Source: Vicinamibacterales bacterium
Lineage (GTDB): Bacteria; Acidobacteriota; Vicinamibacteria; Vicinamibacterales; CAZQMT01
Reading direction: 5' to 3'
Length of the DNA stretch: 64,000 nucleotides
Assembly (NCBI GenBank): GCA_965197935.1
Contig: CBDAOD010000003.1
Location: 1,132,042-1,196,041 of the forward strand
The translations under genes and the position numbers were made by a program. Under the pieces are notes generated by a model that did no database searches, was not told the origin of the DNA, and worked only from the letters and a program-made list of their open reading frames with translations. Positions 3,222 through 30,030 of the stretch are shown one piece after another. Position 1 is the first letter of the stretch, and every line of letters begins with the position of its first letter.

Positions 3222-3228
3222 TGTCAAG

Positions 3229-9440: not shown

Positions 9441-9491
9441 GCTGCGTCGCTGAACCATCCGAACATCGCTGGCATCCACGGGCTCGAAGAA
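9441..9491 (+). pseudogene. Tiny remnant of a Ser/Thr protein kinase
   Basis: AASLNHPNIAGIHGLEE matches the conserved ...LNHPNIA.I(Y/H)GLEE block after the VAIK strand of bacterial Hanks-type kinases. No surrounding kinase sequence is present. Confidence 0.3.
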
Positions 9492-9811
9492 CCAGAAGAG
9501 GGTACGGAATGGCTAGACGACTCTGGACGATTGGACTGAGCATCATTTTCATGGCGGCCAGCGCGCAGGCACAAACGGACCTGCCGTTTGAAGTCGGGTC
9601 CGTCACCGCATTCGACGAGCCCTGGGCCCTGGCGTTCTTGCCGGATGGCCGCATGCTGGTGACGGAAAAGAAGGGCAACCTGCTCATCGTCACCCAGGAC
9701 GGGGAAACGTTCCGAGCGATCGGCGGCGTGCCGGACGTCGCTTACGGCGGCCAGGGCGGGCTGGGGGACGTCGCCCTGCACCCGAATTCTCCCGAGAACC
9801 ACGTGATTTAC

Positions 9812-11397: not shown

Positions 11398-11892
11398 ATG
11401 CCCGTGACCGCCACGCGAGAGTCTCTGCCAGCCGAGCCCGACCATGCCGGCGTGGCGTTTCATCCGCCGCTCTTGCTTGTGGGGTCGTTGGTGCTCGGAT
11501 TCCTACTCCGCTGGATCGTTCCTCTCGACTTCCTGTCGTGGGAGGTGTCCGCGCTGCTTGGCCCAATCATGGTGGCCGCCTCGTTCGGCGTGTTCTTCTG
11601 GGCAGTGTTCACGATGCGGGCTGCCGACGCCTCCATACCCACCAGCGAACCGACGGATGTGATTGTGAGTCGTGGCCCGTACGGGTTCTCGCGTAACCCC
11701 ATCTACGTGGCGATGCTGGGTCTACAGCTGGGTGTTGGGATCTGGGTGGATAGCGTGTGGTTCCTCATCCTCGCAGGCATCTCGGTGCCACTTCTTTGGT
11801 GGGGCGTGATCTCGCGAGAAGAGCGATACCTGGAGCGCAAGTTTGGCGTCGAGTACCGTGAGTACCAAACACACGTGAGGCGGTGGTTGTAG
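11398..11892 (+). CDS. Isoprenylcysteine carboxyl / phospholipid methyltransferase-family membrane protein
   Basis: Multi-TM protein with [16 protein letters not shown]...[23 protein letters not shown], the ICMT/PEMT C-terminal signature. Confidence 0.75.
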
Positions 11893-12002
11893 ACCCACGA
11901 CAACGGGAGAAGAGCGTTAATGAAGTGCTACGAACGCGAGCCGCGAGACTATCGGGGGTTCTTGACGTCAGTGCCTCGGAGCGCCGAGAGAGGAGAGATG
12001 CC

Positions 12003-12570
12003 GTGAAAAGCCATGAAGTAGATTACGAGATCATTGGTGATGACATGCAGATCGTGGAAGTGGAACTGGACCCGAATGAGACGGTGATTGCCGAGGCCGG
12101 CGCCATGAACTACATGGAAGCGGGAATCGGGTTCGAGTCCAGGATGGGGGACGGCACGAATCCGAAGGCCGGCGTCATGGATACACTCCTCAGCGTGGGC
12201 AAGCGTGCGCTCACCGGGGAGAGCATCTTTCTCACACATTTCACGCACCGTGGCCCTGGCAAGAAGCGCGTCGCCTTCGCGGCCCCGTATCCTGGAAAGA
12301 TTCTGGCCATGGATCTGGACGACGTGGGCGGGGAACTCCTGTGTCAGAAGGATGCCTTTCTCGCCGCGGCCCGGGGTACGGAAGTGAGCCTTGCGTTCAA
12401 CAAGCGCCTGGGGGCCGGATTCTTCGGAGGCGAGGGATTCATTCTTCAGAAACTCCGGGGTGACGGCATGTGCTTCATCCACATCGGTGACACCGTGGTC
12501 GAGAAGCAACTCAAGGGAGAGACGCTACGAGTGGACACGGGTTGCCTGGCGGCGTTCACCTCTGGCATCG
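12003..12570 (+). pseudogene. AIM24/TIGR00266 (DUF124) family protein, 3' end lost
   Basis: GTG 12003 after [40 protein letters not shown]...[10 protein letters not shown]...[19 protein letters not shown]...[11 protein letters not shown] is typical of the family. Similarity stops at about 12570 and the track ORF continues as low-complexity read-through. Confidence 0.5.
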
Positions 12571-12802
12571 GTGATAATCAAGGAGTTGGTGACCGTAGGA
12601 GCGAAGCAGGCGGTCAGCGGCAACGGATACTTCATGGGCGAGTTCGTCGGTCTCGAAGCGACTATCAAGGATCCAGGTCATCGAAGGCCAGGGACTCTTC
12701 TTGCTCGAAGGCGACGACGTTGCGATGCAAGCGGGAGTCGTGTTGGTCGCACCCGCAGGAGCGCCTCACGGCCGAGGATGTCTCTATCATGTTGACTTGT
12801 AG
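12571..12802 (+). pseudogene. Cupin-domain gene remnant (internal deletion and frameshift)
   Basis: GTG 12571 gives [34 protein letters not shown]. After a +1 shift at about 12670 it reads [34 protein letters not shown]. The metal-binding His block expected between the two pieces is missing. Confidence 0.3.
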
Positions 12803-12947
12803 TTGTTTACACGGCAGTTGTCAGCGTCGAGCCGGCCCCTCCGCGGTCCAATCTGCCACGCGCATCGTCAACCTGACAGAGCCTTGGCGTATACTCGGAC
12901 CGCTGGGACGCGAACGCCAGGCAACCTGATCTGCGAAGGAGAGACCC

Positions 12948-14198
12948 ATGGGTTCGAAACGACCTGATCGAAGGGAATTCCTACAAGGCGGCGCCGCGTT
13001 GGCCGGGGGTTTGACCTTGGGTGCCGCGGAGCCCGTACTCGGCCAGCTCCCGGAGCCACAAACCTTCATCAAGGGCAGCGACGACCTGGTCGCCTACGGC
13101 GAGCGCTCCCGCTTCGTGACCTCGGTCCGCATCCCGCACCCGCCAGGCAGTAGGCCTTCGCCCGATGACTTTGGGCTCGTTTTTCATGTGGCGGCGCCCC
13201 TGCAGGATTCGGTGGGGACGATTACGCCATCCTCGCTCCACTTCGTGGGGACCACCCGTGGCTCCTATGTTCCGGAGATCGATCCTCGCGAGCATCGGTT
13301 CATGATCCACGGGTTGGTGGACCGTCCGCTGGTCTTCACCATGGAGGACTTGAAGCGTCTCCCTTCCGTAACCCGCCCTCATTTCGTCGAGTGCGCGGGA
13401 AACCGTTCGAGGCCCCAGCACAAGACAGTGCAGGAAACGCACGGGATGACCAGTTGCGCCGAATGGACCGGCGTGCTCCTGTCCACGCTGCTCAAGGAAG
13501 CGGGCGTGAAGGACGCGGGGAAGTGGATCGTCGCGGAAGGGGTGGAGGAGGTAAAGGGCGCTTCCAGCATCCCGATGGAGAAGGCCATGGACGACTGCCT
13601 CGTGGCCTACGGTATGAACGGCGAGGCGGTTCGTCCCCAGAACGGATTTCCACTGCGGCTGTTGGTTCCCGGTTTTGAGGGAATCTTCAACTCGAAGTAT
13701 CTCAGGCGAATCAAGGTGGTGGACCGGTACTACATGACCTACAACGACTACGGGCATCTGAGGCGAGACCCTGACGTCGCGGCGCTGGGGTACCAGATCG
13801 GACCGAAGTCGGTCATCATCTTTCCATCCGCGGGACAACAGCTGCCCGATCGCGGATTCTACGAGGTCAGCGGCTTGGCCTGGTCGGGCGGGGGCGCCAT
13901 CGGGCGGGTGGAGGTCTCCACCGACGGAGGCCGACGGTGGATGGACGCCCAGATTCAGGGCACGGCCCACCGCATGGCGCATGCGCGGTTCACCTTCCAG
14001 TGGAACTGGGACGGGAACGAGACCGAGCTCATGTCGCGCTGCACGGACGAGCTGGGCCAGGTCCAGCCGACACGAGCCGAGGTCGCCGAGTTCTTCAACG
14101 TGCCCGCGGACCCGTCCTACCGGGTGCCGGGTCAGGACAATTCCATTCAGCCGTGGCGGATCGCGAGCGATGGGAGCGTTCACAATGGGTATGCTTAG
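12948..14198 (+). CDS. Sulfite dehydrogenase/oxidase molybdopterin subunit (SorA/SoxC type), Tat-exported
   Basis: RBS GAAGGAGAG. Twin-arginine signal RREFLQGGAALAGG. Oxidoreductase Mo-binding and dimerisation-type sequence (HFVECAGN...NGFPLRLLVPGFEG...). Confidence 0.85.
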   Translation: MGSKRPDRREFLQGGAALAGGLTLGAAEPVLGQLPEPQTFIKGSDDLVAYGERSRFVTSVRIPHPPGSRPSPDDFGLVFHVAAPLQDSVGTITPSSLHFVGTTRGSYVPEIDPREHRFMIHGLVDRPLVFTMEDLKRLPSVTRPHFVECAGNRSRPQHKTVQETHGMTSCAEWTGVLLSTLLKEAGVKDAGKWIVAEGVEEVKGASSIPMEKAMDDCLVAYGMNGEAVRPQNGFPLRLLVPGFEGIFNSKYLRRIKVVDRYYMTYNDYGHLRRDPDVAALGYQIGPKSVIIFPSAGQQLPDRGFYEVSGLAWSGGGAIGRVEVSTDGGRRWMDAQIQGTAHRMAHARFTFQWNWDGNETELMSRCTDELGQVQPTRAEVAEFFNVPADPSYRVPGQDNSIQPWRIASDGSVHNGYA

Positions 14199-14745
14199 AC
14201 TTCTCCCGATTCTGTTGCTGGCGGGGGCCTCCGTGCTGGCGCAGGCACCCACCTACGGCGTGGGCAGGACCCCAACCGAAGAGGAAATCCGCGCCTGGGA
14301 CATCTCCATCAGTCCCACCGGGGAGGAGCTCCCGCCGGGGAGCGGCACCGCCGATGACGGCGCGGTGGTCTATCGGACCAGGTGCGCGCTATGTCACGGG
14401 GAGAACGGAATCGAGGGCCTGGCTCCCAGGCTGGTCAAACGCGACGCGGAACCAGGCGTCCACCCCTGGGACTTGGGACGCATCCTGCCGATCCGCGCGC
14501 CGTACGCGACGGTGGTCTGGGACTACATCAACCGCGGCATGCCGCTCGAAGAAGAAGGGACCCTCACCGCCGACGAGGTCTATGCGCTGACGGCCTATCT
14601 GCTAGTCATCAACGATGTCATCCCGGAGGACACGGTCCTCGACGCTGAGAGTCTGCCCAAGATCGAGATGCCGAATCGGGACGCGTTCTCTCGCGTCCCG
14701 GATTGGGAGCCCGGAAGGCCCAGGCTTCCGGGCTACCCCCACTAG
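14185..14745 (+). CDS. Monohaem cytochrome c partner subunit (SorB/SoxD-like)
   Basis: ATG 14185 overlaps the 3' end of the Mo subunit gene. Signal peptide MGMLRLLPILLLAGASVLA and haem motif CALCH. The upstream part of track ORF 13981-14745 is an overlap artefact. Confidence 0.8.
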   Translation: MGMLRLLPILLLAGASVLAQAPTYGVGRTPTEEEIRAWDISISPTGEELPPGSGTADDGAVVYRTRCALCHGENGIEGLAPRLVKRDAEPGVHPWDLGRILPIRAPYATVVWDYINRGMPLEEEGTLTADEVYALTAYLLVINDVIPEDTVLDAESLPKIEMPNRDAFSRVPDWEPGRPRLPGYPH

Positions 14746-14799
14746 ATCGTCAGCTTCTGGCGCCAGGGACCCGTCAGGGCAAGGAAGATTTGGCGTCCC

Positions 14800-16516
14800 C
14801 TATCTTTGCTCTGTGACGGCGTCGGGCAATCGCTCCAGCCCCACCGTTTCCCATCCGTCCGCCGTCCGGCGGAAGTAGACGATCACCGGGACCTCCCAGG
14901 CCGGATGCGCGGCGTGGCTGGCACTCACGCGGGCGCGGATGAAATCGGGCGACTCGGCCCGTAGCTCGGCCGGCACCGCGAGACGAGGGCGGGGACCGGC
15001 GCCGTCAGGGCCGACCTCGACCGCGACGCCGGTGAGGTTGTCGAACACGGCCCAGCTCGCGCGGTACGTCGAGGCCGGCGTCGCCGCGCCGGCGGCCGCG
15101 GCCGCGTTCTCGAAGGTCAGCGTCCGCGCCTCGCGGTCGAGGACGAAGTCGACGAGCGGATTCACGTTGGTCAGCCAGGTCGCGGCGATCTTGTCGCGTC
15201 GCTCGAGCAGCGTGTCCACGAGGTAGCGCTCGGCACGGCCGTCCGAGAGCCGGCCCATCCTGACCATCGCGGCGATCGCCTCGTCGGTGAAGGCCGCCAC
15301 CCGCCGGGCCGCCCAGAACGTATCGTCGGCGCGCGCGTTCTGGAAGGCGCGGTTCGGATAGTGCGGCACCCACGACTCGGGAGCGAAGGAGTCGGCCTCG
15401 AAGCGCCCGACCGACGGCAGGTCCGGGAACTCGATCGAGGTCCAGCTCGGCACCGTCAGCCCAAACGTGACCATCCGGAGGAGGCTCTGTCGGACGTCCC
15501 ACAGATATTCGTTCCCGGAGCGCCGGCTCTTCACCTCGATCCCCGCGCTGCCCAGCGTCGACCCGAAGTCCAGCAGGTTGTGCTGGATGATCCGGCGGTC
15601 GCCGGCATCGACGAGCGTATCGAGCGTGTTGATGCCGCGCGAGTCCATGTGGTTGATCCACGCGGCAAAGACCCGCATGCCGCGTAGCTCGCGCCGATGC
15701 TCGTGCGGGACAATGTCGTTGGGATCGTCTCCCCGCACGCCGAAGTAGCGGAAGGGACCCAGCGGCTTGCCGGGGAGCGCCTTGCTGGCGAGAACCCGAT
15801 AGCTCCCGTCATCGTTCCGGGCCACACCGGACAGCAGCACGTCGATGTCCTCGCGCCGCATCTGGCGCTCGTGACCGGTCACCCCGACGTAGGTCGCCTC
15901 GCTCACGTCGAGATCCTCGGGATGGAACGTCGCCACGTAGTTCTCGGGGACGTTGTAGCCGAGCGCATACATGATCTTCGTGGAGATCACCTCGGCGGCT
16001 GAGGCCATCTCGTGGTAGCCGGGCGGATCGAACTTGATGAAGAAGAGAGACCTGGCCGAGTCCCGCATCGTGAACCCGGGTGTCACGCCCTCGCGCTTGG
16101 TGGATTGCACCATCCAGGGACCCGGCGCGGGTCCCAGCGCCCGGTCCGGGCCGCGGGCGAGCTCACCGAGGGTCATCGGTCGTTCGCGGTTGCGGTTCGT
16201 GTACCAGCTCGAGTTCGGCACCTCGTCCATCGTGTTCGCGTTCTCGGCGCGGCGGTCGACCCGCTCGCCCGGAGTCAGCAACGTGTTCTCGATGAAGTCG
16301 AACCCTTCCGATGCCGGCCCGCTCGACGGCGCCGGAGGCATCCTGGGTCTCGGGGAAGCCCGCGATCGGGTCATCGGGATAGAACCGCAGAGCCCAATCG
16401 TCGTCGTCGGCGGCGGCGGCTGCCGCTAGGCCCAACGGCACGCTCAATCCCAGCATGACGAGGGCCCAGATCCCGGAAGCGATCCACGCGCGCCGGTGAG
16501 ACGGTCGATGTCGCAT
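14800..16516 (-). pseudogene. Signal-peptide-bearing protein-kinase-like-fold protein of unknown function (frame disrupted near its 5' end)
   Basis: ATG 16516 gives MRHRPSHRRAWIASGIWALVMLGLSVPLGLAAA...RFYPDDPIAGFPETQDA in one frame. The 524-aa body (14800-16374) is in another frame, and the two meet between about 16300 and 16375. The body has FFIKF, NHMDSRGIN (HxDxxxxN) and LLDFGS (DFG). Confidence 0.6.
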
Positions 16517-16522
16517 CGTCGA

Positions 16523-17794
16523 CTACCTCGACGGATCCTGGCTGGGCGATTCGCCCGGCCGACCCTGGAGCACTGGCCCGAACTTGAAGATGACGTGGGT
16601 GCCCTCGCCGCCCCCGGTGCCGATGTCGAACCTGAGAATGAAGTTGTTCCGGGTGCTCACGCGAAACCCGACGCCGTAGGACCCCTCGAGATTGCGGAAG
16701 TCCAGATGCCTGCGATCCGCGAAGACCTTGCCCGCATCCGCGAACAACGCCATGTCGAGCGCCGCAAACACCTCCCAGCGATATTCGGCGTTGAAGAGCA
16801 TCGCGTGACGATCGTGGAAGCGGTATTCCTCGAAGGCTCGCAACGTGTAGGCTCCCCCGATCCTTGGCATTAAGTAGAACGGCACGACGCGATCGTCCTC
16901 CGTCGAGGACATGGTCAGGAACGCCCGCAGGGCGATCACCCGGCGCTTGTCGAAGAACGGGATGAGCTGGGTGGTCTCGGTCTCGATCTGACGGAAGCTG
17001 TACCGGTCGAGGTCGCGGTCGCTGTAGAAGTGCATCCCGACATGATGACGCCCGCCACTCCGGGGATTGCCCGGCCGATCGTACGAATTCAGGTCGAAGA
17101 AGAGGCTGCCGTGTAGAAAATCCGGCTGCGCGTCGAGCCCGGGCGCCTCGGCCTCCGAGAACAGCTCGTCGGTCGAAGGAAAGAGCGGGTCGCGACCGCC
17201 GCCGACGTGGGGCCGCAGAAAGCGCATGCGGATGCCCACGCTGACGCCGCCCCCCGGGTTCGCGGCCAGCTCCGCCCCCAGCTCCGTCCCTCTGTAGAGG
17301 TAGGAGGTCTGGTCTTCCAGCCGGGCCTGGCCCCCCAGCCCGAAGTAGTCCTCCTGCGTGTTCTCGCGATGCCGGGCCTGGCCCTTCAGGGTGAACAACC
17401 CGCCGGCCAGGGAGCGCTCGAGCTCGACCTGCGCCAGCGTGTAGCGGTTGCGCGACACGGCGGCCGACCCGTCGAGCAGCCAGTCACGACCAAAGTGGTG
17501 GCGGTACCCGGCGCCGATCGCGAAGCCGGAGCCGCTCGGCAGCCCGCCGATGCGCGGGTAGAATCCGTCCGCTCGGATCTTGAGGCGGTCGAAGCTGCCT
17601 CGCTCTTCCAGGTAGAGCATCAGCCGCTCGATGCGACCGGGGCTCTCGGACTCGAGCCGGGCCGCCTTCTCGGCCTGGCGCTGCGCGATCGCCTCCGCTC
17701 GCGATTCCTGCGCCTGGACGCCGGCACTCGCGCCGAACCCGAGCCCGGCGAAGACGGCTGCCGTCACCCACCGGCTTGCCCTCCTGGTCAGCAT
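16523..17794 (-). CDS. Short Omp85/surface-antigen (D15) family outer-membrane barrel without recognisable POTRA repeats
   Basis: Likely start MLTRRASRWVTAAVFAGLGFGASAGVQA (17794). The C-terminal region ...FNAEYRWEVFAALDMALFADAGKVF...GSYGVGFRVSTRNNFILRFDIG is the Bac_surface_Ag signature. Confidence 0.7.
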   Translation of the reverse strand: MLTRRASRWVTAAVFAGLGFGASAGVQAQESRAEAIAQRQAEKAARLESESPGRIERLMLYLEERGSFDRLKIRADGFYPRIGGLPSGSGFAIGAGYRHHFGRDWLLDGSAAVSRNRYTLAQVELERSLAGGLFTLKGQARHRENTQEDYFGLGGQARLEDQTSYLYRGTELGAELAANPGGGVSVGIRMRFLRPHVGGGRDPLFPSTDELFSEAEAPGLDAQPDFLHGSLFFDLNSYDRPGNPRSGGRHHVGMHFYSDRDLDRYSFRQIETETTQLIPFFDKRRVIALRAFLTMSSTEDDRVVPFYLMPRIGGAYTLRAFEEYRFHDRHAMLFNAEYRWEVFAALDMALFADAGKVFADRRHLDFRNLEGSYGVGFRVSTRNNFILRFDIGTGGGEGTHVIFKFGPVLQGRPGESPSQDPSR

Positions 17795-17917
17795 CGTCAC
17801 GACCCGCCCTCCTCCGCCGACGGCGCGCACCCGTGTGGCGCTCCTGATGGACCGATCACCCATCCGTCGCTCTGCCACCGGATCATGCCAGGCATCGTGC
17901 CGTGCCAACACATCGGG

Positions 17918-18375
17918 TCAGGGCGCCAGCTCGCGAATGGTCATCGCCAGGGCCGCATTGACCCACCGCGCGCTCGCCCCCGATTCGGCGCCGGTCGGCT
18001 CGGCGAACACCCAGCCGTCTGTCCCGCGGGCGACCACCCGATAGGTGGCCGACTGCCCTCCGGCTGGCCACGTGAGCTCGTAGCTCCGGCCGGGCTGGAG
18101 AAAGCTGGGCGTCGGCACCTGCACGACCGGCGGCTGCGACAGGCTCACCTCCCACACGCCGGTCTGCAGCGCTCGAAAACCGTCGGCGTGTTGGCGACGC
18201 TGACGCTGCCCTCCACGTTCACGACGCCAGGCGCGGGCATGGGGAGATCGTAGGTCTGGGGCGTCGCGCCGCTGGGCGCCGCGGCGGAGCCGAGATGCGA
18301 CGAGGCGACCGTCGCAGCGCCGGCGAACACCGCCAGGGTGAGGACGACCGGGAGCGGATTGTCGGCAAGTCTCAT
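17918..18375 (-). pseudogene. Small secreted hypothetical protein (frameshift in an A4/T4 run at 18176-18179)
   Basis: ATG 18375 after AGGAGG. Signal peptide MRLADNPLPVVLTLAVFAGAATVASS. The frame breaks after ...VANTPT and continues in track ORF 17918-18157 (...WEVSLSQPPVVQVPTPSF...). Confidence 0.5.
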
Positions 18376-18404
18376 CGTGGAGCCTCCTGGCTCAGGGTCG
18401 CGCA

Positions 18405-20465
18405 TCACGCCGGCCGGGACGCGACCTCCTGTGTCCGTTCGAAGACCTTGTACATCATGTCCTCGGCCCACAGATAGCCCACGACCCGGCGATCGTCGCG
18501 GTCCCGAATGATCGGTGTGCCCTTCAGCCCGTGATCACGCATCGTCTCGGCCGCAACCACGCTCGAGTCGTCGCGCGTGAGCGCGATGGGGTTCGCGACC
18601 ATGAACTCCCGCACCCGGACGTTCCCACGCTGGCCCGCGGGCAGGGCGGCGACCACCTCGATGGCGTTCAGGAAGTCGGTCCGCGTCACGATGCCGACCA
18701 GCCACTCCCGGTCGTCGAGCACGAGGCAGACGTCGAGGTCGTGCTCGCGGAACAGGGCCAGGGCGTCCTGGAGCGTCTGATCGGGCCGCAGGTGGACGGG
18801 CGGCGGGGGCTCCACGAAGGTGGCCAGGGGCTCCTTGGACAGGATCTCGTGGGCGACCGGGAGCCGCAACCAGATACCCTTGGCCCGCCGCTTCACGGCG
18901 TCCGAGACGATGTGCCGCAGGGAGGTGAGCGATCGCGACACCTGCGAGAACACCTCGCGGCCGAGCACGGTCACCTCGACCGGCGTACGCGCGCGGACGC
19001 TGGCCCCACGCGGGCGGTTCTCGATCAGTGCCATCTCTCCGAAGAAGTCGCCGGCTCCCATCACCGCCACGACCTGCTCGTCGTCCTCGCCCTCGCGCCG
19101 ACGCAACACCTCGACCTGACCCTTCTCGATGACGTAGAGGCTGGTCGCCGGATCACCCGAGCGGAAGACGAAGTCTCCCGCTTCGTAGTGCGCGCTCGAC
19201 ACGCGCTCGGTCTGATCCGTCTTGAGGTGGGCCAGGTCCCGGGGGAACACGAGGTCCCACGCCCAATCGAACCCCACCTTCACGCGGCGCGGCCAGGACG
19301 GCAGCTTGAACAGGTAGACGCCCCGCCAGACGAACCACGCCAGAAACCCCGAGAGCTGAACGCCCAGGATCTCGGCCACCGCCTTGCGCCCGCCGATCGC
19401 GCAGAGCTGGCCGATCGGTTTGTAGCTGAACGATCGTGCCGCGTCGCCCCGTAGCACCCGGACGATGTTCTCGGCGGCCTGGCGGCCCTCCCGCTCGGCA
19501 AACTGACCGGTGGGTGGGCACTCCCGCCCATCGTGCGCGTTGACGATCCGCGCGCAATCACCGATCGCCCAGACGTTGGCGAATCCTTGCACTCGCAGGT
19601 CGGGATCCGTGAGGAGGCGACCGCCCTCCTTGGGGGCGTCCAGCCGCTGCACGACCGGGGACGCCGCCGTCCCGATCGTGCAGACCACGGTCGCGGCTCG
19701 AAACGCCCGGCCATCCTGAAGCACCACGCCGTCGGGGGTCGCCACCGCGACGCGTGCGTTCAAGATCACCGCGATACCCGCCTGCTCCATCATGACGCGG
19801 GCGCGCTCCCGTAGATCCGGGCTGACCTCCGGCAGCAGCTGGTCGCGGGAGTGGATGATGCTGACGCAAATGGCATCGGTGGACGTATTCGAAAAGAACC
19901 GCTGGCTGCCACGTACCAGGTCGTTGAGCTCGCCGGCGGACTCCACCCCGCTGTAGCCTCCGCCCACGACCACGAAGCTCAGATACCACCGCTGGCGGTC
20001 CGGGTCATCGCACACGTCCGCCTTCTCGAGCTGCTCCATCACGTGGGTGCGAAGCGCGAGCGCGTCGCCGATCGTCTTGAGCGGAAAGGAGTGATCGGCC
20101 ATCCCGGGCACCCTGCCGATGCTCACCGGACGACCGCAGGCAATGACGACGTGATCGTAGGACATCCGCCGGGCCAGCCCGTCGTGGCCCTCGTACTCGA
20201 CCTCTCCCGCGACGAGATCGATGGAGAGGACATCCTCGGTGCGACATCGGACCGAGGACAGCATCTGGCGCAGCGGGGCCGCCACGCAGTCGGCGTCGAT
20301 CGACGCACCCGCCACCTCCGGGAGGAGCGGGTGGAACACCATGTGGTTCTCGCGGTTGAAGAGCACCAGCTCGCAGCCCTTGGACCCGAGCCGGCGAGCC
20401 AGGGTCTTGGCGCACTTCACGCCCGCAAAACCGCCGCCGACGATCACGATGCGAGGAGGTGTCAC
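18405..20465 (-). CDS. Type-II NADH dehydrogenase-like flavoprotein fused to a cyclic-nucleotide-binding domain and a CBS pair
   Basis: GTG 20465 overlaps the RND stop (GTGA). RIVIVGGGFAGV plus a second dinucleotide fold VVVGGGYSGVE. Then YEAGDFVFRSGDPATSLYVIEKGQVEV...GDFFGEMALI...RGASVRA (cNMP domain), followed by two CBS-like repeats (...LVGIVTRTDFL..., ...VVGYLWAEDMM). Confidence 0.75.
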   Translation of the reverse strand: MTPPRIVIVGGGFAGVKCAKTLARRLGSKGCELVLFNRENHMVFHPLLPEVAGASIDADCVAAPLRQMLSSVRCRTEDVLSIDLVAGEVEYEGHDGLARRMSYDHVVIACGRPVSIGRVPGMADHSFPLKTIGDALALRTHVMEQLEKADVCDDPDRQRWYLSFVVVGGGYSGVESAGELNDLVRGSQRFFSNTSTDAICVSIIHSRDQLLPEVSPDLRERARVMMEQAGIAVILNARVAVATPDGVVLQDGRAFRAATVVCTIGTAASPVVQRLDAPKEGGRLLTDPDLRVQGFANVWAIGDCARIVNAHDGRECPPTGQFAEREGRQAAENIVRVLRGDAARSFSYKPIGQLCAIGGRKAVAEILGVQLSGFLAWFVWRGVYLFKLPSWPRRVKVGFDWAWDLVFPRDLAHLKTDQTERVSSAHYEAGDFVFRSGDPATSLYVIEKGQVEVLRRREGEDDEQVVAVMGAGDFFGEMALIENRPRGASVRARTPVEVTVLGREVFSQVSRSLTSLRHIVSDAVKRRAKGIWLRLPVAHEILSKEPLATFVEPPPPVHLRPDQTLQDALALFREHDLDVCLVLDDREWLVGIVTRTDFLNAIEVVAALPAGQRGNVRVREFMVANPIALTRDDSSVVAAETMRDHGLKGTPIIRDRDDRRVVGYLWAEDMMYKVFERTQEVASRPA

Positions 20466-23400
20466 GAAGTGGCTCGATACGCGAAGTCCTTGAAGCTGAC
20501 GCGGAAGAACAGCGAGTACAGGATCGGTACGACTCCCAGGGTGAGCACGGTGGCGAACAGCAGACCGAAGATGATCGCGATCGCCATCGGCTCCCACATG
20601 GGCCCACCGCCGAACCAGAGCGGCAACAGCCCCGCGACCGTCGTGGCCGTCGTCAGCAGGATCGGCCGAAACCGCCGCTGGGCCGCCTCGACGATCGCGT
20701 GAGGCGGATCCAGGCCATTCTCGCCGATCTCGATGTCAATCCGGTCGATCAGCACGATGGCGTTGTTGATGACGATGCCCGAGAGGGCGATGATCCCGAG
20801 CAGCGTCATGAAACCGAAATACGAGCCGGCCATCAGCAGACCGGCAACGACCCCGACGATGCCGAGCGGAATAGTCAGCAGGATCATTGCGGTCCGGCGA
20901 ATCGAGTTGAACTGCACCATCAGGAGGAGCAGGATGATCAGCCCGGCGAGCGGGAGCTGGTCCGCGATCGACTGGTTCGCCTTGACCGACGTCTCCTCCT
21001 CACCGCCGAACCCCCAGCGGTAGCCGAGCGGCCATCCCTGCCGCTGCGTCTCGAGCCAGGGCCGCAGCGCCGCCACGACCTCGCTGGGCGTCACGCCGAA
21101 ATCGAGATCGGAAGAGACGGTCACGGTCTTGAGCCGGTCGCGCCGCCAGATCTTAGACGGCTCCCATACGATTTCGGTGTCGGCCACCTGGCTCAGCGGC
21201 ACGGAGCGCCCGGTGGCTTGGGCGTAGACGTTGAGGCTGTCGAGCTTCGTGAGGTCGGTGCGGCTCGCGACCGATGACCGCAGGGAGACGGGGATGACCT
21301 CGTCCACCTCCCGATACTGGGTGGTCTCGAAGCCGCTGAGCGCCGTCTGGAGCGAGATGGCGATGTCCTGGTTGGTGACTCCAGCCCGACGCGCCCGAGG
21401 CTGATCGACATCGATCACCAGCTTCTTGCTGCGGACACCCCAGTCGTCCGTGATGTTCTTCGTGCCGGGGATCGCGCGGAGCTGGGCCTTCACGTCGTCC
21501 ACGGTGTCGAACAGCGCGTCCGACTCTCGGCCGGACAGCCTCACCTGGACGGGTGAGGTGATGGGCGGTCCCATCTGCAGAGGGTTCAAGGTGACGTCGA
21601 GATCGGGAAACTGTTCCAGAGCGAAGGCTTCGAGGCTCGGAATCAGCTCGTCGGTCATGACCGCCCGCGATGTCGCGTTGACGATCGAAAAGGCGTAGTT
21701 CGGACTACTCGGCTCCGGAGTGTGCGCCAGGTAGAATCGCGGCCCGGCGTTGCCCACGAACGTCGCCCAGTTGGTCACACCCTCGAGCCGCCCGGCCCCG
21801 GGGGAGCCGTCCGCCTGCCCGGCCGCGAGCACGGTCCCGGCTGGCGCCACGGACATCGACGTCCCGGCTACCAGCGTCTCCCGGATGTGGCCGTCGATGG
21901 CCTCGATGACCTCGACGGTCCGCTCGATCGCCGTCCCGGCCGGCAGCTCGTACTCGGCCGTGAAGATCGCCTTGTCTGAGGGCGGAAAGAAGATGTTCGG
22001 GATATAGGCGAAGCCCTGCAGCGCGACCACGAAGATGACAACGATGCCCGCCACGGCGAGCAGGCGATGGCGCAGGCCCCCAATGAGCATGCCGCGGTAG
22101 AGGCGATAGAACCGGGAGTCGAACCCTTGCCCGATGTTGGCCTGTTTGACGCGGAGAAACAGCACGCACAGCAGCGGCGTCATCGTCAACGCCAGCACCC
22201 AGGAGGACAGCAGCGTGATTGTGACGACCATGAAGAGCGGCGCCGTGTACTCGCCGGTGCTGGACTTGGCGAGGTAGATCGGTAGGAACGCGGCCGCCGT
22301 CGTCAGCGATGAGATGAGTAGCGGTGCACGCAGCTCGGACGCGGAGCCAACGGCCGCCTCCAGCGGAGGCTTGCCCTCCGACATCTGGACCATGATCGAT
22401 TCGGCCATCACGATTGCGTTGTCCACGAGCATGCCGAGCGCGATGATCAACGCCGCGAGCGACATCTGGTCCAACCCGATGCCAAGGAACGACATCACCA
22501 GCAGCGCCATGATCATCGCCATCGGCACGAGGCTGGCCACCACGAGCCCCGTGCGCAGCCCGAGGAAGAGCAACATGACCAGCAGCACGATCACGACCGC
22601 CTGCAGCAGGTTCGTGGCGAACTCCGCCACCTTGCGCTCCACGACCTCGGGCTGAAACGCGACCAGGTCGAACTCGACCCCGATCGGATAGATCGCCTGC
22701 AGCCGGTCGATCTCGCGGCGCACGCCCTCGCCCAACGTCACGATGTTGCCGCCCTCCCGCATCGACATCGCCAGGGCGAGCGCGGGCGTGCCGGACGCGT
22801 GCACGATGCTTCTCGGTGGGTCGATGTAACCGCGGGAGATCTCCGCCAGGTCCTCCAGGTAGAGGATCTCCGGTCGGCCCGGCAAGGTCACGACCGTCTG
22901 ACGCAGATCCTCGATCGACTCGAAGTTGCCGCTGGGCTCCAATGTGATCCGCTCGACGCCGGTGCTGATGTCACCGCCGGGGATGATGATGTTGGCGCTC
23001 TCGAGAATCTGTCGCAGCTGAATCGGCGACAGCCCGAGCTCCGCCAGGCGCGAATTGCTGTAGTCGACGAAGACGCGCTCCTCCTGGGCGCCGAAGATGT
23101 CGACCTTGGCCACGTCGTCCACCCGGAGCAGCTCGTCGCGCACCTCGTCGGCGACCTCCTTCAGGTCGGCGTACGAGAACCCCTCGCCGGTCAGCGTCAC
23201 GATGACCCGAACACGTCGCCGAACTCGTCGTTGACTGTCGGCCCGACGATGTCCGCAGGCAGATCCGGCACGACCTTGTCGACCTTGCGCCGCAGGTCGT
23301 CCCAGATCGGACGCATGTCCATGAACTCCTCGCGAATGTTGACCAGGACGATCGACACGCCGGTCTTCGACGTGGAGGTCACGAAATCCAGCTCGGGAAT

Positions 23401-23619
23401 CTCCTGGATCACCTCCTCGAGCTTGTCGCTGACGAGGTTCTCGACGCGGTCCGGACTGGCGCCGGGAAAGATCGTCAGGACCTGCGCGATCCGGATGATG
23501 AAGCCGGGATCCTCGGCACGGGACATCCGGGTGTACCCCGACACTCCACCCAGGATCACGACCAGGAGCGCGACCGTCGTGATCCGGTTCTTCTCGATAG
23601 CCGCGCGTGTCAGATCCAT
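20462..23619 (-). pseudogene. RND (AcrB/HAE1-type) efflux transporter, frameshift at C/G3 run 23206-23208
   Basis: Track ORFs 23197-23619 (N-terminal 140 aa) and 20462-23200 (912 aa) are contiguous parts of one RND pump. Adding one G in TTCGGGTCATCGTG restores ...DEFGDVFGVIVTLTGEGFS... Confidence 0.8.
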
Positions 23620-23622
23620 CGT

Positions 23623-24729
23623 TCAGCCCTCCTGCGCGGTCGTCAGGCGCACGTCGAGGCCATCCTGGATGCGGCTGACCCCGGCCGTGACGACGCGATC
23701 GCCGTCCGCAAGCCCATCAATGAGCTCGAGACCGTCCGGCGCGAACCCGCCGACCGTCACCGCCCGCCGGCGCGCCACGGCGCGGCCCTCGCCCGCCGGC
23801 TCGGCGACGAAGACGAACCGGCCCTCGCGATCTTCACCCACCGCCTCGGGCGGCACGATGAAGCGCTCATCGCGCCCGTCATCGGGCAGCTCGAAGGTCA
23901 CCTCGGCCGCCATCCCGGCGCGAACGTCGCCGGCGCTGTCTGGGAGGCTGGCGGTGACCGGAAATGTCGTGCCGGTCGCCGTTGCCATCACGCCCACCTC
24001 GGTGACCGCTCCATCGAAGCGGGCCCCGGTCATGGCGTCGAAGGCGACGCTGACGGGATCACCCGTCTGGATCTGCTGGATGAGCCCCTCGGGCACCGCC
24101 ACCTCGACCTCGGGCGCGACCCCGGAGGTGAGGACGGCGACCGCCTGTCCTGCGCTGACGTTCTCGTTGACCTCCGCCGGCACCTCGGCGATGGCCCCGG
24201 CCACTGGGGCAACCAGTCGCGTGTAGTCGACCTGGCGCACGGCCAGCTCCAGCCGCTTGCCGACCACCTCCACCTGCGCCTGCGCGGACGCAGCACCGGC
24301 CATGGCCGCATCGAGGTCCGCACGCGAGGCGTTGTCGTTCTCGTACAGCCCGCGCACCCGTCGGAGATCGGCATCGGCGTTTCGAGCCTGCGCCCGCGCC
24401 TGGGACAGGGACGCCTCGGCCTCCTTGACCTGGAGCTCGTAGTCCACCGGATCGAGCCGGGCGATGAGGCGCCCGACCGGCACCCGGCTGCCTACCCGCA
24501 CCGGCAGCGCCTCGATCGTGCCGGGTACCCGGAAGCTGAGCGTCGATTCGACGCCCGCTCGCGCCACGCCGGAGAACGACCGGGCGCGTCCGCCTCCCGT
24601 AGCTCGCACCTGGGTATAGCGCACCGGTCGAAGGGCCGGCGGCTCAGGCGACGGGGGCGCCGCACAGCCCCACCACACGGTCGGCGTCGAGAGCGACAGG
24701 ATCAGCCACGCGAATCGATGTCCGTTCAT
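23623..24729 (-). CDS. RND efflux periplasmic adaptor (membrane fusion protein, HlyD/AcrA family)
   Basis: Lipoprotein-like start ...TVWWGCAAP. Lipoyl/barrel-sandwich-type sequence with coiled-coil segment (LSQARAQARNADADLRRVRGLYE...). The ATG overlaps the upstream stop (ATGA). Confidence 0.85.
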   Translation of the reverse strand: MNGHRFAWLILSLSTPTVWWGCAAPPSPEPPALRPVRYTQVRATGGGRARSFSGVARAGVESTLSFRVPGTIEALPVRVGSRVPVGRLIARLDPVDYELQVKEAEASLSQARAQARNADADLRRVRGLYENDNASRADLDAAMAGAASAQAQVEVVGKRLELAVRQVDYTRLVAPVAGAIAEVPAEVNENVSAGQAVAVLTSGVAPEVEVAVPEGLIQQIQTGDPVSVAFDAMTGARFDGAVTEVGVMATATGTTFPVTASLPDSAGDVRAGMAAEVTFELPDDGRDERFIVPPEAVGEDREGRFVFVAEPAGEGRAVARRRAVTVGGFAPDGLELIDGLADGDRVVTAGVSRIQDGLDVRLTTAQEG

Positions 24730-27168
24730 GGGTCCTTCCTCGTCGGTGATTCGGGGGTCCGCGGGCTGAACCCCACCTCGGCGAAAAACAGTCTGAGACG
24801 GTCCAGGAAGTCTCGGTGCGCCTCGGGCGTCGTGAAGAAATCGAACTGTCCAGCGGCGCGTTCCACGTTCATCAGATCGACCAGGTAGTCGAACACCGCG
24901 TTCGCCGCCACCTCTTGTGCGACCAAGGCCTGGTTCTGCGCATCCAGCAGGTCCAGGATGGAGGCCGCCCCCTGCTCGTAGGCATCGGTGACCAGACCGA
25001 GGCTGCGCTGTGCCGCGTCGGCCGCGGCCTCGGCCAGCTCGATGCCGGCGTAGGAGGCACCGGCGTGGTGGAGCGTCGACCGCACCCGCTGCTCGACCTG
25101 CAAGGCCACCGCTTGCCGGCGCAGTCGGAGCTCTTCGACCTCCTCGAACGTCCGGGTGCGCTCGGCGCGTCGCGCCCCACCCGTGAACAACGGCAACGAC
25201 GCCGAGAGGCTGAGCGTCCAGTTGACCGCGTTGGGCACGGTGAGACCGGGCAGCGGGACGCCGAACTCGAAGCTGGTCCCCGCCCCACCCGTCTCGACGG
25301 CGCTCACGTCACCGTTGAAGGCGACGGTGGGCACCCAGAAGGCGCGGCGGGCCGCCGTGAGCGCGCGCTCCTGGGCACGGATGCTCGCGTCGATCTGTTG
25401 CAGCTCGGGCGAGGCGGCCAGCGCCTCGTTCGTCATGAAGTCGCGGAAGATGGCGAACGAGAAAAAGTCGTCGAGGTAGGGTCCCAGGCGAGCGGCGCTG
25501 GTCCGCAAGACCGGGTCGTCGAGCCCGGTCTCCTCGGTCTGAAACGACTCCTCCAGCGGGCGATTCAGCAGACGGTTGAGCTGGATCTCGGCCACGTTGC
25601 GCTGGGCGCTCGCATCGATGACATCGCGCCGGTTGTTCGCGATCTGGTTCTCCCAGCGAATCACCTCGGCCGACCGCGCGACGCCGATCTCCTGCCGTAT
25701 CCGCGCCAGATCGAGGTTCGAGCGGGTCACCCTGAGATTGTCCCGCTGGATCTCCTCGAAGGTCTTGGCCCGGAGCACGTCGAGGTAGCCGACCGCGGCG
25801 TCGAGCACGATGTCGAGACGGGTCTGCTCCCGCTGCTGCTGGCGCGACACTTGGAGCGCGTCCTCAATCGCGACGCTCGCCCGCGCACCGTCTGAGAACA
25901 AGAGCTGCGAGACACCCGCCGACGCCACGCCGAGCCACTGGGGTCCGGCCGAGAGCGACGCCGCGCGGTCCCGGTCGATGGTCTCGGCCAGTCCGGCGGC
26001 CGACACCTGCGGGTACCACGCGGCGCGCGCAATCCGTCGTTCCTGGTCGCCTGCGGCCACGAACCGGTCCGCCGCCAGCAGATCGAGATTGGCGGCGACG
26101 GCCTCCTGCGCCGCCGCCGACAGGGTGAGCCGGCGCTGCACCGCCCGCTGGCGTTCTCCCAGGATCTCCGCCTCGGTATAGACGCTCCACGACGGGTAGA
26201 CGCCGATGGCCCGCGCCGTTTCGATGTTGAGCGACAGTCGAAGGCGGCGCTCGAAATCTACCGGCAGCGCGCCCGCATCCTCGCCCAGCAAGATCCGCTG
26301 GATGTTCAAGGCGACCCTGCGACCCAAGCGATCAAACGCCTCTCCGAGGAAGAGGCTGGCCAAGAGCCCCGCCTCGACCTCCCGTTGTCCCCAATAGGAA
26401 AAACCAGGCAGCCGGCGCTCGATCAGCGCGAGCACCAGTCGGCTGAAATCACCGCGCGGTAGCTGCATGAGGGGAAACACGTACACGGCGTCGGTGTCGC
26501 CGGGGATCGCCGCGAGCGCGTCCTCTACCGAGATCCCGACCCTGACCGCGACCGGCTCGACGTCGAGCGCCTGCAGCCGCGCGAGCAGGTTGGCCTCGAG
26601 CTCAGGAACCGCCGCCACGACCCTCGTTGGTCAGGAAGGTCATGTGGCGAAAGGGAGCGACCTCGCGGAGTCGACGTACGTTCTCCTCGAGGTTGGACGG
26701 GAAGGTGATGTAGCTCAGGTTGGGCACACCGCTGACGCGATCGCCCCCGGCACTCGTGGCGGTGGGGATCCCCTGCACCTCCGGATCGATGACGAACGTC
26801 GCGACCAGCGGCTTGGGGAGCTCGGAGAACCGCCCGGCGTAGGTGGACGCGACGGGGCCTACCGTGAGGACCAGGTGGACCTCGGGGTCCGCCAGCAGCG
26901 CATCGACCGCAGTCGCCACGCCGGTGAGCGACCAGTCCGCCACCCGCCGCTTGGCGTCCGGAAAGGCGACGTTGAACTCGCTTCCCACCAGATCCAGGAT
27001 CTCCCTTTCGAAGATCCCCCGCACCTCGTCGTTGCGCTCCAACGGGCCATCGAGCACGACACCGATGGTGCAGGGATCGCAGGCCATCTGGCCGATCCCG
27101 TCGGCCGGAGCCAGGAGCGCCACTCCCATGGCGAGAGCCACGCACCTCCATCTACTCCAAGTGAACAT
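24726..27168 (-). pseudogene. TolC-like outer-membrane efflux protein with a ~330-aa periplasmic-binding-protein-like N-terminal extension (frameshift near 26605-26620)
   Basis: ATG 27168 (MFTWSRWRCVALAMGVALLAPA). Track ORFs 26602-27219 and 24726-26618 abut (...FLTNEG / VAAVPELEAN...). The C-terminal ~450 aa show two OEP-type repeats. The N-terminal part resembles an ABC_sub_bind-like fold, a weak call made by eye. Confidence 0.6.
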
Positions 27169-27364
27169 CCGATCCTCCAGTCGACCGTTGCTGGCGGGCC
27201 GCGCCCCCCTTCCGCACATCTCGTCGCATCGGTGGCCACGACCAATCCAGCCGCGAGCGGCCCGGACGGGGCGGGACGAGCGAGAATCTGATGATACGCG
27301 TGGAGCCCTGGCGTGTCACTCGCGGGTGAAGGGTCGGTGTACAATCGCAGTCGGCAGCTCCGCC

Positions 27365-27745
27365 ATGCACACGCACGTCAAGGTTCTGGCCGTCCTCAAT
27401 ATCGCCCTCGGCGCCCTGGGCCTCATCGCGTCGCTCTTCGTCCTCCTGATATTCGGCGGGACCGCCGGGCTGCTCGCGGTCACGGCCGAGTCGAGCGACG
27501 CCCTGATCGCCAGCCCGATCGTCGGTCTGATAGGGGGCGTGGTGGCGCTGGTCCTGTTCGCGCTGTCGGTGCCGGGCATCATCGCCGGCGTGGGACTGCT
27601 CAAGCTGCGACCGTGGGCCCGAATCCTCGGGCTCATCCTCGGCGTCCTCAACCTGCTGCACTTCCCCCTCGGTACCGTCGTCGGACTCTACGGGCTGTGG
27701 GTCCTGCTCTCACAGGAAGGCGCGGCGCTGTTCACTCCCCCGTGA
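27365..27745 (+). CDS. Small 4-TM membrane protein, unknown function
   Basis: MHTHVKVLAVLNIALGALGLIASLFVLLIFGG...GLYGLWVLLSQEG. The coherent hydrophobic pattern supports coding. The larger track ORF 26843-27745 is an upstream extension. Confidence 0.55.
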   Translation: MHTHVKVLAVLNIALGALGLIASLFVLLIFGGTAGLLAVTAESSDALIASPIVGLIGGVVALVLFALSVPGIIAGVGLLKLRPWARILGLILGVLNLLHFPLGTVVGLYGLWVLLSQEGAALFTPP

Positions 27746-30030
27746 GTCTGCCAGCGCTCGGTCTCGGCCCTTCGGGTCGCGCTCGCCGCGCGCCACGCCC
27801 GGGCGCTCGCGGCCGAAAGGGCCGCGGTGTCACGCTGGTCATCCTGGCCCTGATCGGCGCGCATCCGCCCGCGCGCGCGGCGGGCGCCGACGACGTCAGG
27901 CTACCCGACCCGTCCTACCCGCGGGTGATGGAGCGCTACCTCGCCGGCGATTCGGCCGACGCCCTGGCGCGTCTCGACCGCGCCGTGGCACAGCCGGCGG
28001 CGGACGCCCGCCCGCTCGAAGCGGTCATCCTCCGGGCACATCTGCTCGAGACGCTGGGGCGGCGGCCCGAGAGCCAGGACACCTGGGCCGAGGTGGCGCG
28101 CCGCGAGCGCACGCTCGCCTCGTTCGCGCGACGGGCGATCGTCGAGAGTCTGGTAAGTGGCGATCGCGCCGCCGACGCGGAGCGCCGGTTGGAGGAGCTG
28201 GCGGCCGCCGGACGCGGCGCGATGCCCCTCGACCTCGTCCTCGCCGTCGGGGATGCGTACCGGCGCACCGGCGACCACGCGCGCGCCCTCACCCTCTACG
28301 CCCGGGTGCTCCGCAGACAGCAGCAGGGAGACGCGGCCGATGCGGCGCGTCTCGGGCTCGCGGCCGCGTACGAGGGCCAGGGCGAGCTCGAGCGCGCCCG
28401 GCGGGCCTTCCGCGACGCCCTCTCGAAGCACGCCGTCCCGGGCACATTCGCGACCGCGTGGGAGGGCGAGCGCCGGCTCGCGCTGGCGCTGGGCGAGCCG
28501 CCCGCAGCGATCCCCGAGGACGATCTGCTCTCGCTGACGCGTCGACTTCGCGCCGCCTCGCGCTACGACGACGCGCTGATGGTGCTGGACCGATGGCGCG
28601 ACGCGCATCCCACGACCGCCCGACGCGACCTGATCGAGGCCGAGACGATTGCCACCCTCTACGACGCGCGCGCGAACGATGAGGCGCTGGCCAGATGCGA
28701 GACGTTCGCGGACCGATTCCCGCGCAGCGGCCGTCTACCGCAGGTCAAGCTGACCCAGTTCCGCCTGGCCGTTCGCACGGGCCGCACCGACCTCGTGCGG
28801 TCATGGGGCCGTCCCCTCTGGGAGGGTCGCGTCTCTCCGAGCGACTCGGTCCGGTGGAACGCCGGCGTCCTGCTGGCCGCCTACCTGGTGAGCGTGGGTG
28901 AGCTCGACGAGGGGTTGAGCGTCTACCGCGGTCTGTTCCGTCGCGCCGGGTCCCGGAGCCGCCAGCTCGACATCTTGTGGCGGGCGGGGGTCGCGGCGCT
29001 CAGGGCCGGTCAGCACGAGCGCGCCCGGAGCAACCTACAGGGCGTCGTGCGGCGCCGGCCTGGCGGCACGCTGGCCGCGGCCGCGCGCTACTGGCTCGCC
29101 ATCGCGGACGACCGGCTGGGGCAGCGCCAGGATGCACTCCGCGCGCTCGTCGCCCTCGAGCAGCAGCAGCCGTTCGCCTACCACGGCATCCGCGCACGGG
29201 AGTGGATCGCCCGGGAGACACGACCCGGGGAGGCCGAGCTCCTCCGGACGCTGCGTGAGAGATCCCGGCCGTCGGCGCTCAGCTTCCCGGCGCTCCGTCT
29301 CAGCGACGCGGCGCGCCGCCACACCGACGTCGTGGCGGCGACGCATTTGGCGCGCGCCGGGTTGAAGGTCGAGGCCGCACGGCACGTCCGGCGAGCCCTG
29401 GGCGCGCGCCGGAACGACCGCGCCCTCGCGCTGCTCGCCGCCCGCGCGTCGGCCGAGGCGGGTGCGCACCGGCGCGGGTTGGCGATCCTCGCCGATCACT
29501 TCGGCGGGTTCCTCCGCCGGCCCACCGAAGGCCTGCCGAAGGATTTCTGGCGCCTGGCGTACCCCCGGCCGTTCTGGCGCGACGTCGAACGCGCGGCGGC
29601 CAGCCACGGCGTGGATCCCGTGCTCCTGGTGTCTCTGATGCGGCAGGAATCGCGATTCGACCCGCAGGCCCGCTCGGCGGTGGGTGCGATCGGCCTGTTT
29701 CAGATCATGCCGTACACGGCCGCCGAGCTGGCGCCCAGAATCGGACTGCCGATCCCGGACGACACGCGGCTCATGGAACCGTCCATCAACGCCGCCCTGG
29801 CGGCCACGCTGCTGAGCGATCTGAGGTTGGAATTCGCCGGTGCGATTCCGCCGATCGTCGCGTCCTACAACGCCGGCGAGGACCGCGCGCACGCCTGGTG
29901 GCGCGCCGCACGCGATGTGTCGGAGGAGCTGTTCATCGACACGATCCCCTACTCCGAGACGCGCGGGTTCGTGCGCGAGGTCCTCGCCAACTACGACGCC
30001 TATCGGCGGCTGTATCCCACGGGCGACTAG
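27742..30030 (+). CDS. Soluble lytic murein transglycosylase (Slt70-like: superhelical N-domain plus SLT domain)
   Basis: C-terminal LMRQESRFDPQARSAVGAIGLFQIMPYTA...ASYNAGEDRA is the SLT catalytic signature. The proposed start GTG 27742 overlaps the upstream stop and is uncertain. The first ~140 aa of the track ORF are rejected. Confidence 0.8.
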   Translation: MSLPALGLGPSGRARRAPRPGARGRKGRGVTLVILALIGAHPPARAAGADDVRLPDPSYPRVMERYLAGDSADALARLDRAVAQPAADARPLEAVILRAHLLETLGRRPESQDTWAEVARRERTLASFARRAIVESLVSGDRAADAERRLEELAAAGRGAMPLDLVLAVGDAYRRTGDHARALTLYARVLRRQQQGDAADAARLGLAAAYEGQGELERARRAFRDALSKHAVPGTFATAWEGERRLALALGEPPAAIPEDDLLSLTRRLRAASRYDDALMVLDRWRDAHPTTARRDLIEAETIATLYDARANDEALARCETFADRFPRSGRLPQVKLTQFRLAVRTGRTDLVRSWGRPLWEGRVSPSDSVRWNAGVLLAAYLVSVGELDEGLSVYRGLFRRAGSRSRQLDILWRAGVAALRAGQHERARSNLQGVVRRRPGGTLAAAARYWLAIADDRLGQRQDALRALVALEQQQPFAYHGIRAREWIARETRPGEAELLRTLRERSRPSALSFPALRLSDAARRHTDVVAATHLARAGLKVEAARHVRRALGARRNDRALALLAARASAEAGAHRRGLAILADHFGGFLRRPTEGLPKDFWRLAYPRPFWRDVERAAASHGVDPVLLVSLMRQESRFDPQARSAVGAIGLFQIMPYTAAELAPRIGLPIPDDTRLMEPSINAALAATLLSDLRLEFAGAIPPIVASYNAGEDRAHAWWRAARDVSEELFIDTIPYSETRGFVREVLANYDAYRRLYPTGD

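Follow-up and report, generated by a model that had tools for sequence, protein, structure and literature searches.

The seven genes that lie head to tail on the minus strand between positions 27168 and 14800 of a 64,000-nucleotide stretch of DNA from a Vicinamibacterales bacterium (contig CBDAOD010000003.1, positions 1,132,042 to 1,196,041 of the forward strand; this whole stretch is called the window below) are best read as ordinary operon stacking: three units with separate evolutionary histories that have come to lie in a row in this genome only. We give this reading a probability of about 0.75, because each unit is conserved alone and the joints between them are not conserved in relatives. 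The first unit would be a self-contained RND efflux operon with a periplasmic-binding-protein domain at the N-terminus of its outer-membrane factor, the second a stand-alone membrane NADH:quinone oxidoreductase of the NDH-2 type, presumably tuned through its cyclic-nucleotide-binding (cNMP) and CBS domains, followed by a small secreted protein, and the third an obligate pair in which an Omp85-type barrel most likely inserts or exports a kinase-fold enzyme at the outer membrane. An earlier sequence-only reading had treated the seven genes as one unit joining the pump to a redox and cyclic-nucleotide sensor and to the Omp85/kinase-like module, but relatives keep the units apart, with the pump genes and the downstream genes at unlinked positions.

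Conservation of the units and their joints

The joint between the RND permease gene and the NDH-2 gene, for which a synteny comparison had been proposed, is absent in 5 of 5 pump relatives and in 3 of 3 close relatives of the NDH-2 fusion. The pump trio itself is kept as a block on five other contigs (L088, L089/L090, L091 and L172) with identities of 71–88%, that is 71–76% for the TolC fusion, 73–80% for the adaptor, about 76–81% for the main part of the permease and 83–88% for its first 138 residues. What follows the permease gene differs from contig to contig: a 209-residue protein of unknown kind and then a Ser/Thr kinase in L088, an outer-membrane barrel and then a TonB-dependent receptor in L089/L090, opposite-strand genes in L091, and a FAD_binding_3 gene in L172. 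In none of the five is it an NDH-2 fusion. Upstream of the trio stand IS1595 and IS110 transposases in L091 and an rve integrase in L172, where positions 1893–12690 run through leftward PAP2, kinase-like and truncated Omp85 genes, an rve-type insertion sequence (IS), and then rightward genes for the TolC fusion (its head deleted), the adaptor, the permease and the FAD_binding_3 protein.

The NDH-2 fusion has 5054 homologues at E ≤ 1e-50 that share its domain string and are found in many phyla, the best non-self match being 63% identical. The neighbourhood of that homologue (L081) holds a weak guanylate-cyclase-domain match upstream and BshC downstream, and that of the 61% identical homologues (L082/83) has PQQ and M3-peptidase genes upstream and Mo-oxidoreductase and cytochrome c genes downstream; pump, barrel and kinase are absent around all three. 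Within 10 kb of the NDH-2 fusion in 80 genome loci there is no homologue of the window Omp85, kinase-like or small protein, and clustering of the flanking open reading frames (ORFs) of these 80 loci gave no conserved partner, the recurrent neighbours being the synteny of one lineage. The nearest homologue of the small protein sits 3′ of a gene that, by sequence motif, resembles phosphofructokinase, and not 3′ of an NDH-2 gene.

Two side observations concern positions 7481–9994 of L081, 5′ of the closest NDH-2-fusion homologue. The gene there with the weak guanylate-cyclase-domain match is a possible source of cyclic nucleotide, and a 172-residue ORF that is 30% identical to the binding-domain head of the window protein is possibly a free-standing head-like protein.

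The kinase-like gene has 7417 homologues of about 545–570 residues. When 80 metagenome loci of this family were considered, an Omp85-like gene stood directly upstream on the same strand in every one of the 71 with enough upstream DNA, and the two genes likewise abut in L084 (73% identical), L085 and L087. The same 80 loci hold neither an NDH-2 fusion (0/80) nor the small protein (0/80), and a single RND gene (1/80). A PAP2-like phosphatase gene follows the pair in 11 of 49 loci by sequence clustering of the flanking ORFs, and a Pfam-annotated PAP2 gene does so in L085–L087 and in L172; we looked here for a third conserved partner of the pair, and PAP2 is not universal.

Gene content of the block

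From 27168 down to 14800 the ORF listing and six-frame translation place all coding potential on the minus strand, and together with domain searches they bear out the seven same-strand genes, 12.4 kb in all, and the order that had been read from the sequence. The junctions of −4, +3, −4, +29, +123 and +6 nucleotides given for them were reproduced once each gene was read to its true end. The first −4 overlap, between TolC fusion and adaptor, lies at 24729/24726, and the second places GTG 20465 of the NDH-2 gene over the TGA at 20464–20462 of the permease gene (GTGA), a start also given in the public call of 686 residues and in line with where homologues begin. GC content, overall and at third codon positions (GC3), is uniform across the block, and no repeat or IS lies at any junction within it.

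The first gene (24726–27168) encodes an outer-membrane factor made of a signal peptide, a PF04392-type fold of about 300 residues and a TolC/OprM channel, the ABC_sub_bind-type head preceding an OEP/TolC match of 153 bits. Pfam and NCBIfam searches gave no family match for this head as it stands in the window, nor for the small protein or the last gene. Once repaired at a frame break, however, the TolC-fusion query found at least 550 homologues, nearly all of them single proteins of 780–825 residues with PF04392 (ABC_sub_bind) and PF02321 (OEP). The AlphaFold model of its closest homologue (P0244, 76% identical; predicted local distance difference test, pLDDT, 88) shows a continuous alpha/beta binding-protein fold over residues 15–320 and a TolC channel over 332–790. 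Foldseek matches the head to the PF04392 structures 3lkv, 3lft and CD0873 (template-modelling (TM) score about 0.78), so that the description of the protein as TolC-like with a binding-protein-like head has stood up. The adaptor, or membrane-fusion protein (23623–24729), is intact, with a 4-nucleotide overlap between its ATG and the TolC stop, and matches HlyD_3/HlyD_D23 and TIGR01730 (221 bits). The permease gene (20462–23619) is split into pieces of 140 and 912 residues, with ACR_tran matching positions 3–126 in the first and from 151 on in the second. Apart from one frame break it is colinear with intact relatives of 1047–1063 residues (1009–1063 for relatives overall). Its best models, obtained with a truncated query and scoring below curated cut-offs, are of the HAE1 multidrug type, and its best NCBIfam score is to RND_permease_2. 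Judged by these domains the three genes are a tripartite RND efflux pump, with efflux as the predicted function.

The NDH-2-type flavoprotein (18405–20465) is intact at 686 residues from its GTG start, and carries one cyclic-nucleotide-binding domain and a CBS pair. Pfam matches are Pyr_redox_2 (156 bits), Pyr_redox (46 bits), NDH2_C (39 bits against a cut-off of 27.7), cNMP_binding (85 bits) and two CBS domains, and residues 1–410 match solved NDH-2 enzymes (4nwz, E = 8e-41). The cNMP domain resembles those of PKA regulatory subunits, the FGEMAL...RGAS phosphate-binding cassette being visible in the sequence. Presumably, then, NADH:quinone activity is tuned by cyclic nucleotide and adenosine ligands through the cNMP and CBS domains. 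The small secreted protein (17918–18375; about 152 residues when repaired) has a signal peptide followed by a domain of about 75 residues that belongs to no Pfam family and occurs in proteins of 130–157 residues. As a side observation, the same domain is present in 4–10 tandem copies in giant proteins of up to 4853 residues (P0364, P0379 and P0392).

The Omp85-superfamily barrel protein (16523–17794; intact, 423 residues, with a signal peptide) matches PF01103, for the C-terminal 16-strand barrel domain of the superfamily, over residues 235–393 with 35 bits (cut-off 24) and NCBIfam Omp85_fam with 84 bits against a cut-off of 200. Pfam gave no POTRA or ShlB family match at E ≤ 0.01, and there was no sequence match in the PDB. 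The last gene (14800–16516) encodes a secreted protein-kinase-like protein of about 571 residues when repaired, with a signal peptide and a C-terminal beta-sandwich, and its family is without a Pfam, NCBIfam or PDB-sequence match. The AlphaFold2 model built from 74 sequences (pLDDT 91) is a bilobal kinase fold, for which the top Foldseek matches are Fam20C, CtkA, PINK1 and Rio2 (E about 1e-5, probability up to 1.0). Across the 74 sequences K162, E176, N297, D300 and D317-F318 are invariant, an aspartate or glutamate stands at 292 in all 74, and H290 and G319 are kept in 71 each. Fold and catalytic residues together uphold the earlier label "kinase-like", and on the strength of model and alignment the enzyme is probably active.

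Frame breaks

Four of the seven genes are split by frame shifts at short homopolymer runs, which the sequence-only reading had overlooked. Break positions were set by tblastn of intact homologues for the TolC-fusion, RND and kinase-like genes. In the TolC fusion the break lies near 26622 (GAGGGTC), in a G-run inside the binding domain that is two bases short (one base where a codon is expected); in the permease gene it lies at about 23204–5 (TTCGGGTC), in a G-run one base short; and in the kinase-like gene near 16318 (GCGGGCC), in a G-run with one base extra. The small-protein gene changes frame at a T-run at 18176–18179, as judged from a GC3 frame plot and from the 130–157-residue homologues, which read ...NTPxV(R/F)A.Q.G.W.V... 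uninterrupted across the break position. Frames stay open and GC3-rich on either side of the breaks, and domains run on across them. By exact-sequence look-up, the public annotation of the 3,358,334-bp contig lists these genes in pieces (a 630-residue TolC part, a 912-residue RND part and a 79-residue small fragment), and the public kinase-like call of 513 residues is N-terminally short, consistent with the split; the breaks are therefore already in the deposited record.

We also considered whether the TolC head and channel might be two overlapping genes or be joined by a programmed frameshift, a possibility prompted by a frame change in L005 within about 10 codons of that in the window. It was rejected because head and channel form one protein of 780–825 residues in about 115 of the 120 best homologues, because the AlphaFold2 model has one continuous binding-protein fold over the break, and because the breaks in the window and in L005 are both changes in the length of a G-run. 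Three independent lesions fall within about 10 codons of each other in this gene (P0244 residues 156–165), namely the window frame shift near 26622, a G-insertion frame shift near 21045 of L005 (a Dadabacteria metagenome-assembled genome), and an IS or rearrangement with a 42-codon duplication at 5575–6590 of L172.

Expression of the block

Promoter and terminator prediction, which had been suggested as a way of defining the transcription units, found one sigma-70-like match 5′ of the first gene (27319–27291, minus strand; GTGACA-17-TATCAT, 10 of 12 consensus positions). It is the only minus-strand site in 14000–28000, where 2 sites were found against 0.9 expected. No terminator-like hairpin lies in any intergenic gap, all seven such hairpins being within coding sequence. 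The 123-nucleotide gap folds no better than its shuffles (z = +1.2), and an Rfam search of the window returned no match. Clear Shine-Dalgarno sequences precede the starts of the TolC fusion, adaptor, permease, small-protein and Omp85 genes, that before the kinase-like start is weak, and there is none before GTG 20465 of the NDH-2 gene.

Because of the GTGA overlap, the missing Shine-Dalgarno sequence at 20465, the lack of an intergenic terminator and the single promoter-like site upstream, co-transcription of at least the pump and NDH-2 genes is likely. Translation of the NDH-2 gene is probably coupled to that of the permease gene here as well. The sequence-only reading had argued from the GTGA overlap for co-translation and not chance adjacency; coupling here is plausible on account of the overlap and the absent Shine-Dalgarno sequence, but the joint is not conserved in relatives. 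In the mechanism that we propose, an IS-rich genome brought three units onto one strand, where the promoter 5′ of the pump would probably drive at least part of their transcription, and the NDH-2 gene would be translated by termination-reinitiation at the permease stop codon.

Alternative explanations

Several points weigh against simple stacking. The overlap and the missing ribosome-binding site would make NDH-2 expression depend on pump expression, which selection may have favoured. Of the 80 genome loci with the NDH-2 fusion, 12 have an RND gene at a distance of 10 kb or less: in Nitrospira (L014, L015 and L019) an adaptor-RND-outer-membrane-factor set stands directly downstream of the fusion on the same strand, and in a Dadabacteria/Thermodesulfobacteriota group, of which L005 includes a binding-domain TolC, a pump of the orthologous subfamily is convergent with the fusion and 2.5–6 kb from it. 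In L172, a contig of 2x coverage, the Omp85/kinase/PAP2 module stands 1.5 kb from the pump, divergent from it across an IS that truncates both. As to methods, the closest genomes available for the comparison stand at about 75–80% protein identity, and the promoter and terminator scans use an E. coli-type consensus that is not validated for the host phylum.

Such points could be taken to mean that the block is a functional supra-operon, in which the flavoprotein serves the pump as a working accessory and the coupling was selected; the protein could make efflux respond to respiration, redox state or cyclic-nucleotide signals, or render a redox-active substrate of the pump harmless. The GTGA overlap without a Shine-Dalgarno sequence is in keeping with this, as are the rarity of −4 overlaps (about 3 of some 28 same-strand gene pairs in the window), the different flavoprotein that follows the RND gene in L172, and the RND operons found near NDH-2 fusions in 3–4 of about 25 lineages, as clustered by NDH-2 identity, against 1 of 80 control loci (around kinase-like genes the control density is one RND gene per roughly 400 kb of flank). 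Yet the joint is kept in none of the five closest pump loci nor in the closest NDH-2 loci, other lineages arrange the genes otherwise (upstream, or convergent at a distance of several genes), the Nitrospira RND belongs to a distant subfamily (23% identity), the excess counted by lineage is marginal, and most of the 80 NDH-2 loci are without a nearby RND gene. RND proximity to these fusions is suggestive at most, and we regard a selected supra-operon as improbable. A shade less probable still is the broadest version, in which NDH-2/cNMP/CBS proteins are recurrent RND-pump accessories (here, in Nitrospira and in Dadabacteria/Thermodesulfobacteriota), the coupling is functional and the whole block is one envelope-stress transcription unit; if true, it would link efflux to the state of the quinone pool, or redox state, and to cyclic-nucleotide signalling. 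That the pump and the downstream genes were misjoined in assembly and are not adjacent in the organism might be suspected from the seemingly poor consensus of the region (four indels) and from a genome rich in repeats and IS elements, but stop and start overlap precisely at the joint, both proteins are full length against homologues, the junctions inside the block hold no repeat or IS, and GC and GC3 are uniform, which makes a misjoin very improbable indeed.

The breaks themselves admit two explanations. The simplest, which we hold to be fairly probable from the form of the lesions, is that all four are homopolymer-length consensus errors of a low-coverage long-read assembly. The other, which we consider possible and clearly the less probable, is that they are real mutations, which would have turned the pump, small-protein and kinase-like genes into pseudogenes only recently, in a genome where IS elements spread and genes are lost. 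Four breaks within 12.4 kb, set beside eight other long window genes (about 16 kb) that are intact as judged by domain completeness only, among them EF-G, two histidine kinases and a 905-residue transglycosylase, would fit such decay, as would five transposase genes in the window and two genes broken beside IS elements. But each break is only a 1–2-nucleotide length change in a short homopolymer, downstream of which nonsense codons and deletions are absent and codon bias is kept, and the RND frame is open for 912 codons at about 80% identity to relatives. Like breaks are present in related contigs assembled in a similar way at 2x coverage (L172), the clustering is explicable by a local dip in read depth, and the record is one 3.36-Mb contig, which also counts against decay.

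Other features of the window

Of five transposase genes in the window, two adjoin broken genes. An IS-rich stretch (4107–11240) has a Mu-like transposase (4107–5678), a truncated Mutator-family transposase (6288–7382) and a DDE_3 transposase (7427–8494), and an IS200-type Y1 transposase (9891–10379) is inserted in a glucose/sorbosone dehydrogenase gene (9407–9856 and 10368–11240). At 47899–52571 a PilB-like ATPase gene (MshEN and T2SSE positions 3–242) stops abruptly at a Mutator-family transposase (49711–51075), after which comes another T2SSE-type ORF, the N-terminus of which is odd; genes of a type IV pilus cluster surround the locus (PilS/PilR-like, T2SSF, prepilin peptidase, pilins). The frame of a sigma-54 response regulator (43482–45023, minus strand) has no ATG, GTG or TTG 5′ of its receiver domain, the first start being 47 codons in, which may reflect a sequence lesion or an unusual start codon.

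Convergent with the block is a sulfite-oxidase-like molybdoenzyme with a cytochrome c (12930–14745, plus strand), which has counterparts of 43–45% identity at 8990–10988 of L082, just 3′ of the 61% identical NDH-2 fusion. The molybdoenzyme/cytochrome c pair may be what is left of an earlier gene neighbourhood.

Significance

As a cluster, the block is no new system but a local arrangement, and matters little in itself; it shows that in a genome prone to rearrangement unrelated genes can become tightly packed on one strand, even with overlapping stop and start codons. Of greater value are its parts, three abundant and widespread families that are undescribed as far as our literature search found: the binding-domain outer-membrane factor (at least 550 members), the NDH-2/cNMP/CBS protein (more than 5000) and the Omp85/secreted-kinase-fold pair (more than 7000), of which the last is the best experimental target. 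Some caution is due with the public assembly, in which homopolymer indels split annotated genes.

Comparison with known systems

The pump shares the order outer-membrane factor, adaptor, permease with tripartite RND operons of the CzcCBA layout and with the MexAB-OprM and AcrAB-TolC machinery, its junctions being of 4 and 3 nucleotides. The C-terminal 455 residues of the outer-membrane factor superpose on TolC, OprM and CusC, which Foldseek found for the P0244 channel with TM-scores of 0.73–0.81. Unlike known RND operons, that of the window has an outer-membrane factor with an extra N-terminal PF04392-type domain of about 300 residues, no TetR-type regulator is seen locally, and a fourth, unrelated gene is, in this genome only, apparently coupled translationally to the permease gene. 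We found no literature on PF04392-TolC fusions. The flavoprotein has Pyr_redox_2 and the NDH2_C membrane anchor in common with the NDH-2 enzymes of Caldalkalibacillus thermarum (4NWZ) and S. aureus (5NA1), and adds to them a C-terminal cNMP domain like that of the PKA regulatory subunit (85 bits) and a CBS pair, an architecture on which, again, no literature was found.

Though a search for Omp85-linked secreted kinases also returned no literature, both members of the third unit have known counterparts. The kinase-like protein shares with Fam20C (4KQB) and H. pylori CtkA (3AKK) the kinase fold, with the beta3 lysine, the alphaC glutamate, the H-x-D/E-x4-N loop and the DFG motif conserved, and it bears a signal peptide. 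It differs from them in that no sequence similarity is detectable and TM-scores are low (0.24–0.55), and in an extra C-terminal beta-sandwich and the constant position of its gene after that of an Omp85-like barrel. The strict pairing of a barrel gene with a following gene for a secreted protein likewise recalls the TpsB/TpsA, TamA and BamA systems, though the barrel protein of the window is only about 420 residues long, with no POTRA- or ShlB-type domain detected, and its partner is without a TPS domain. From the conserved gene order and the modelled fold, the pair looks like an undescribed outer-membrane kinase system.

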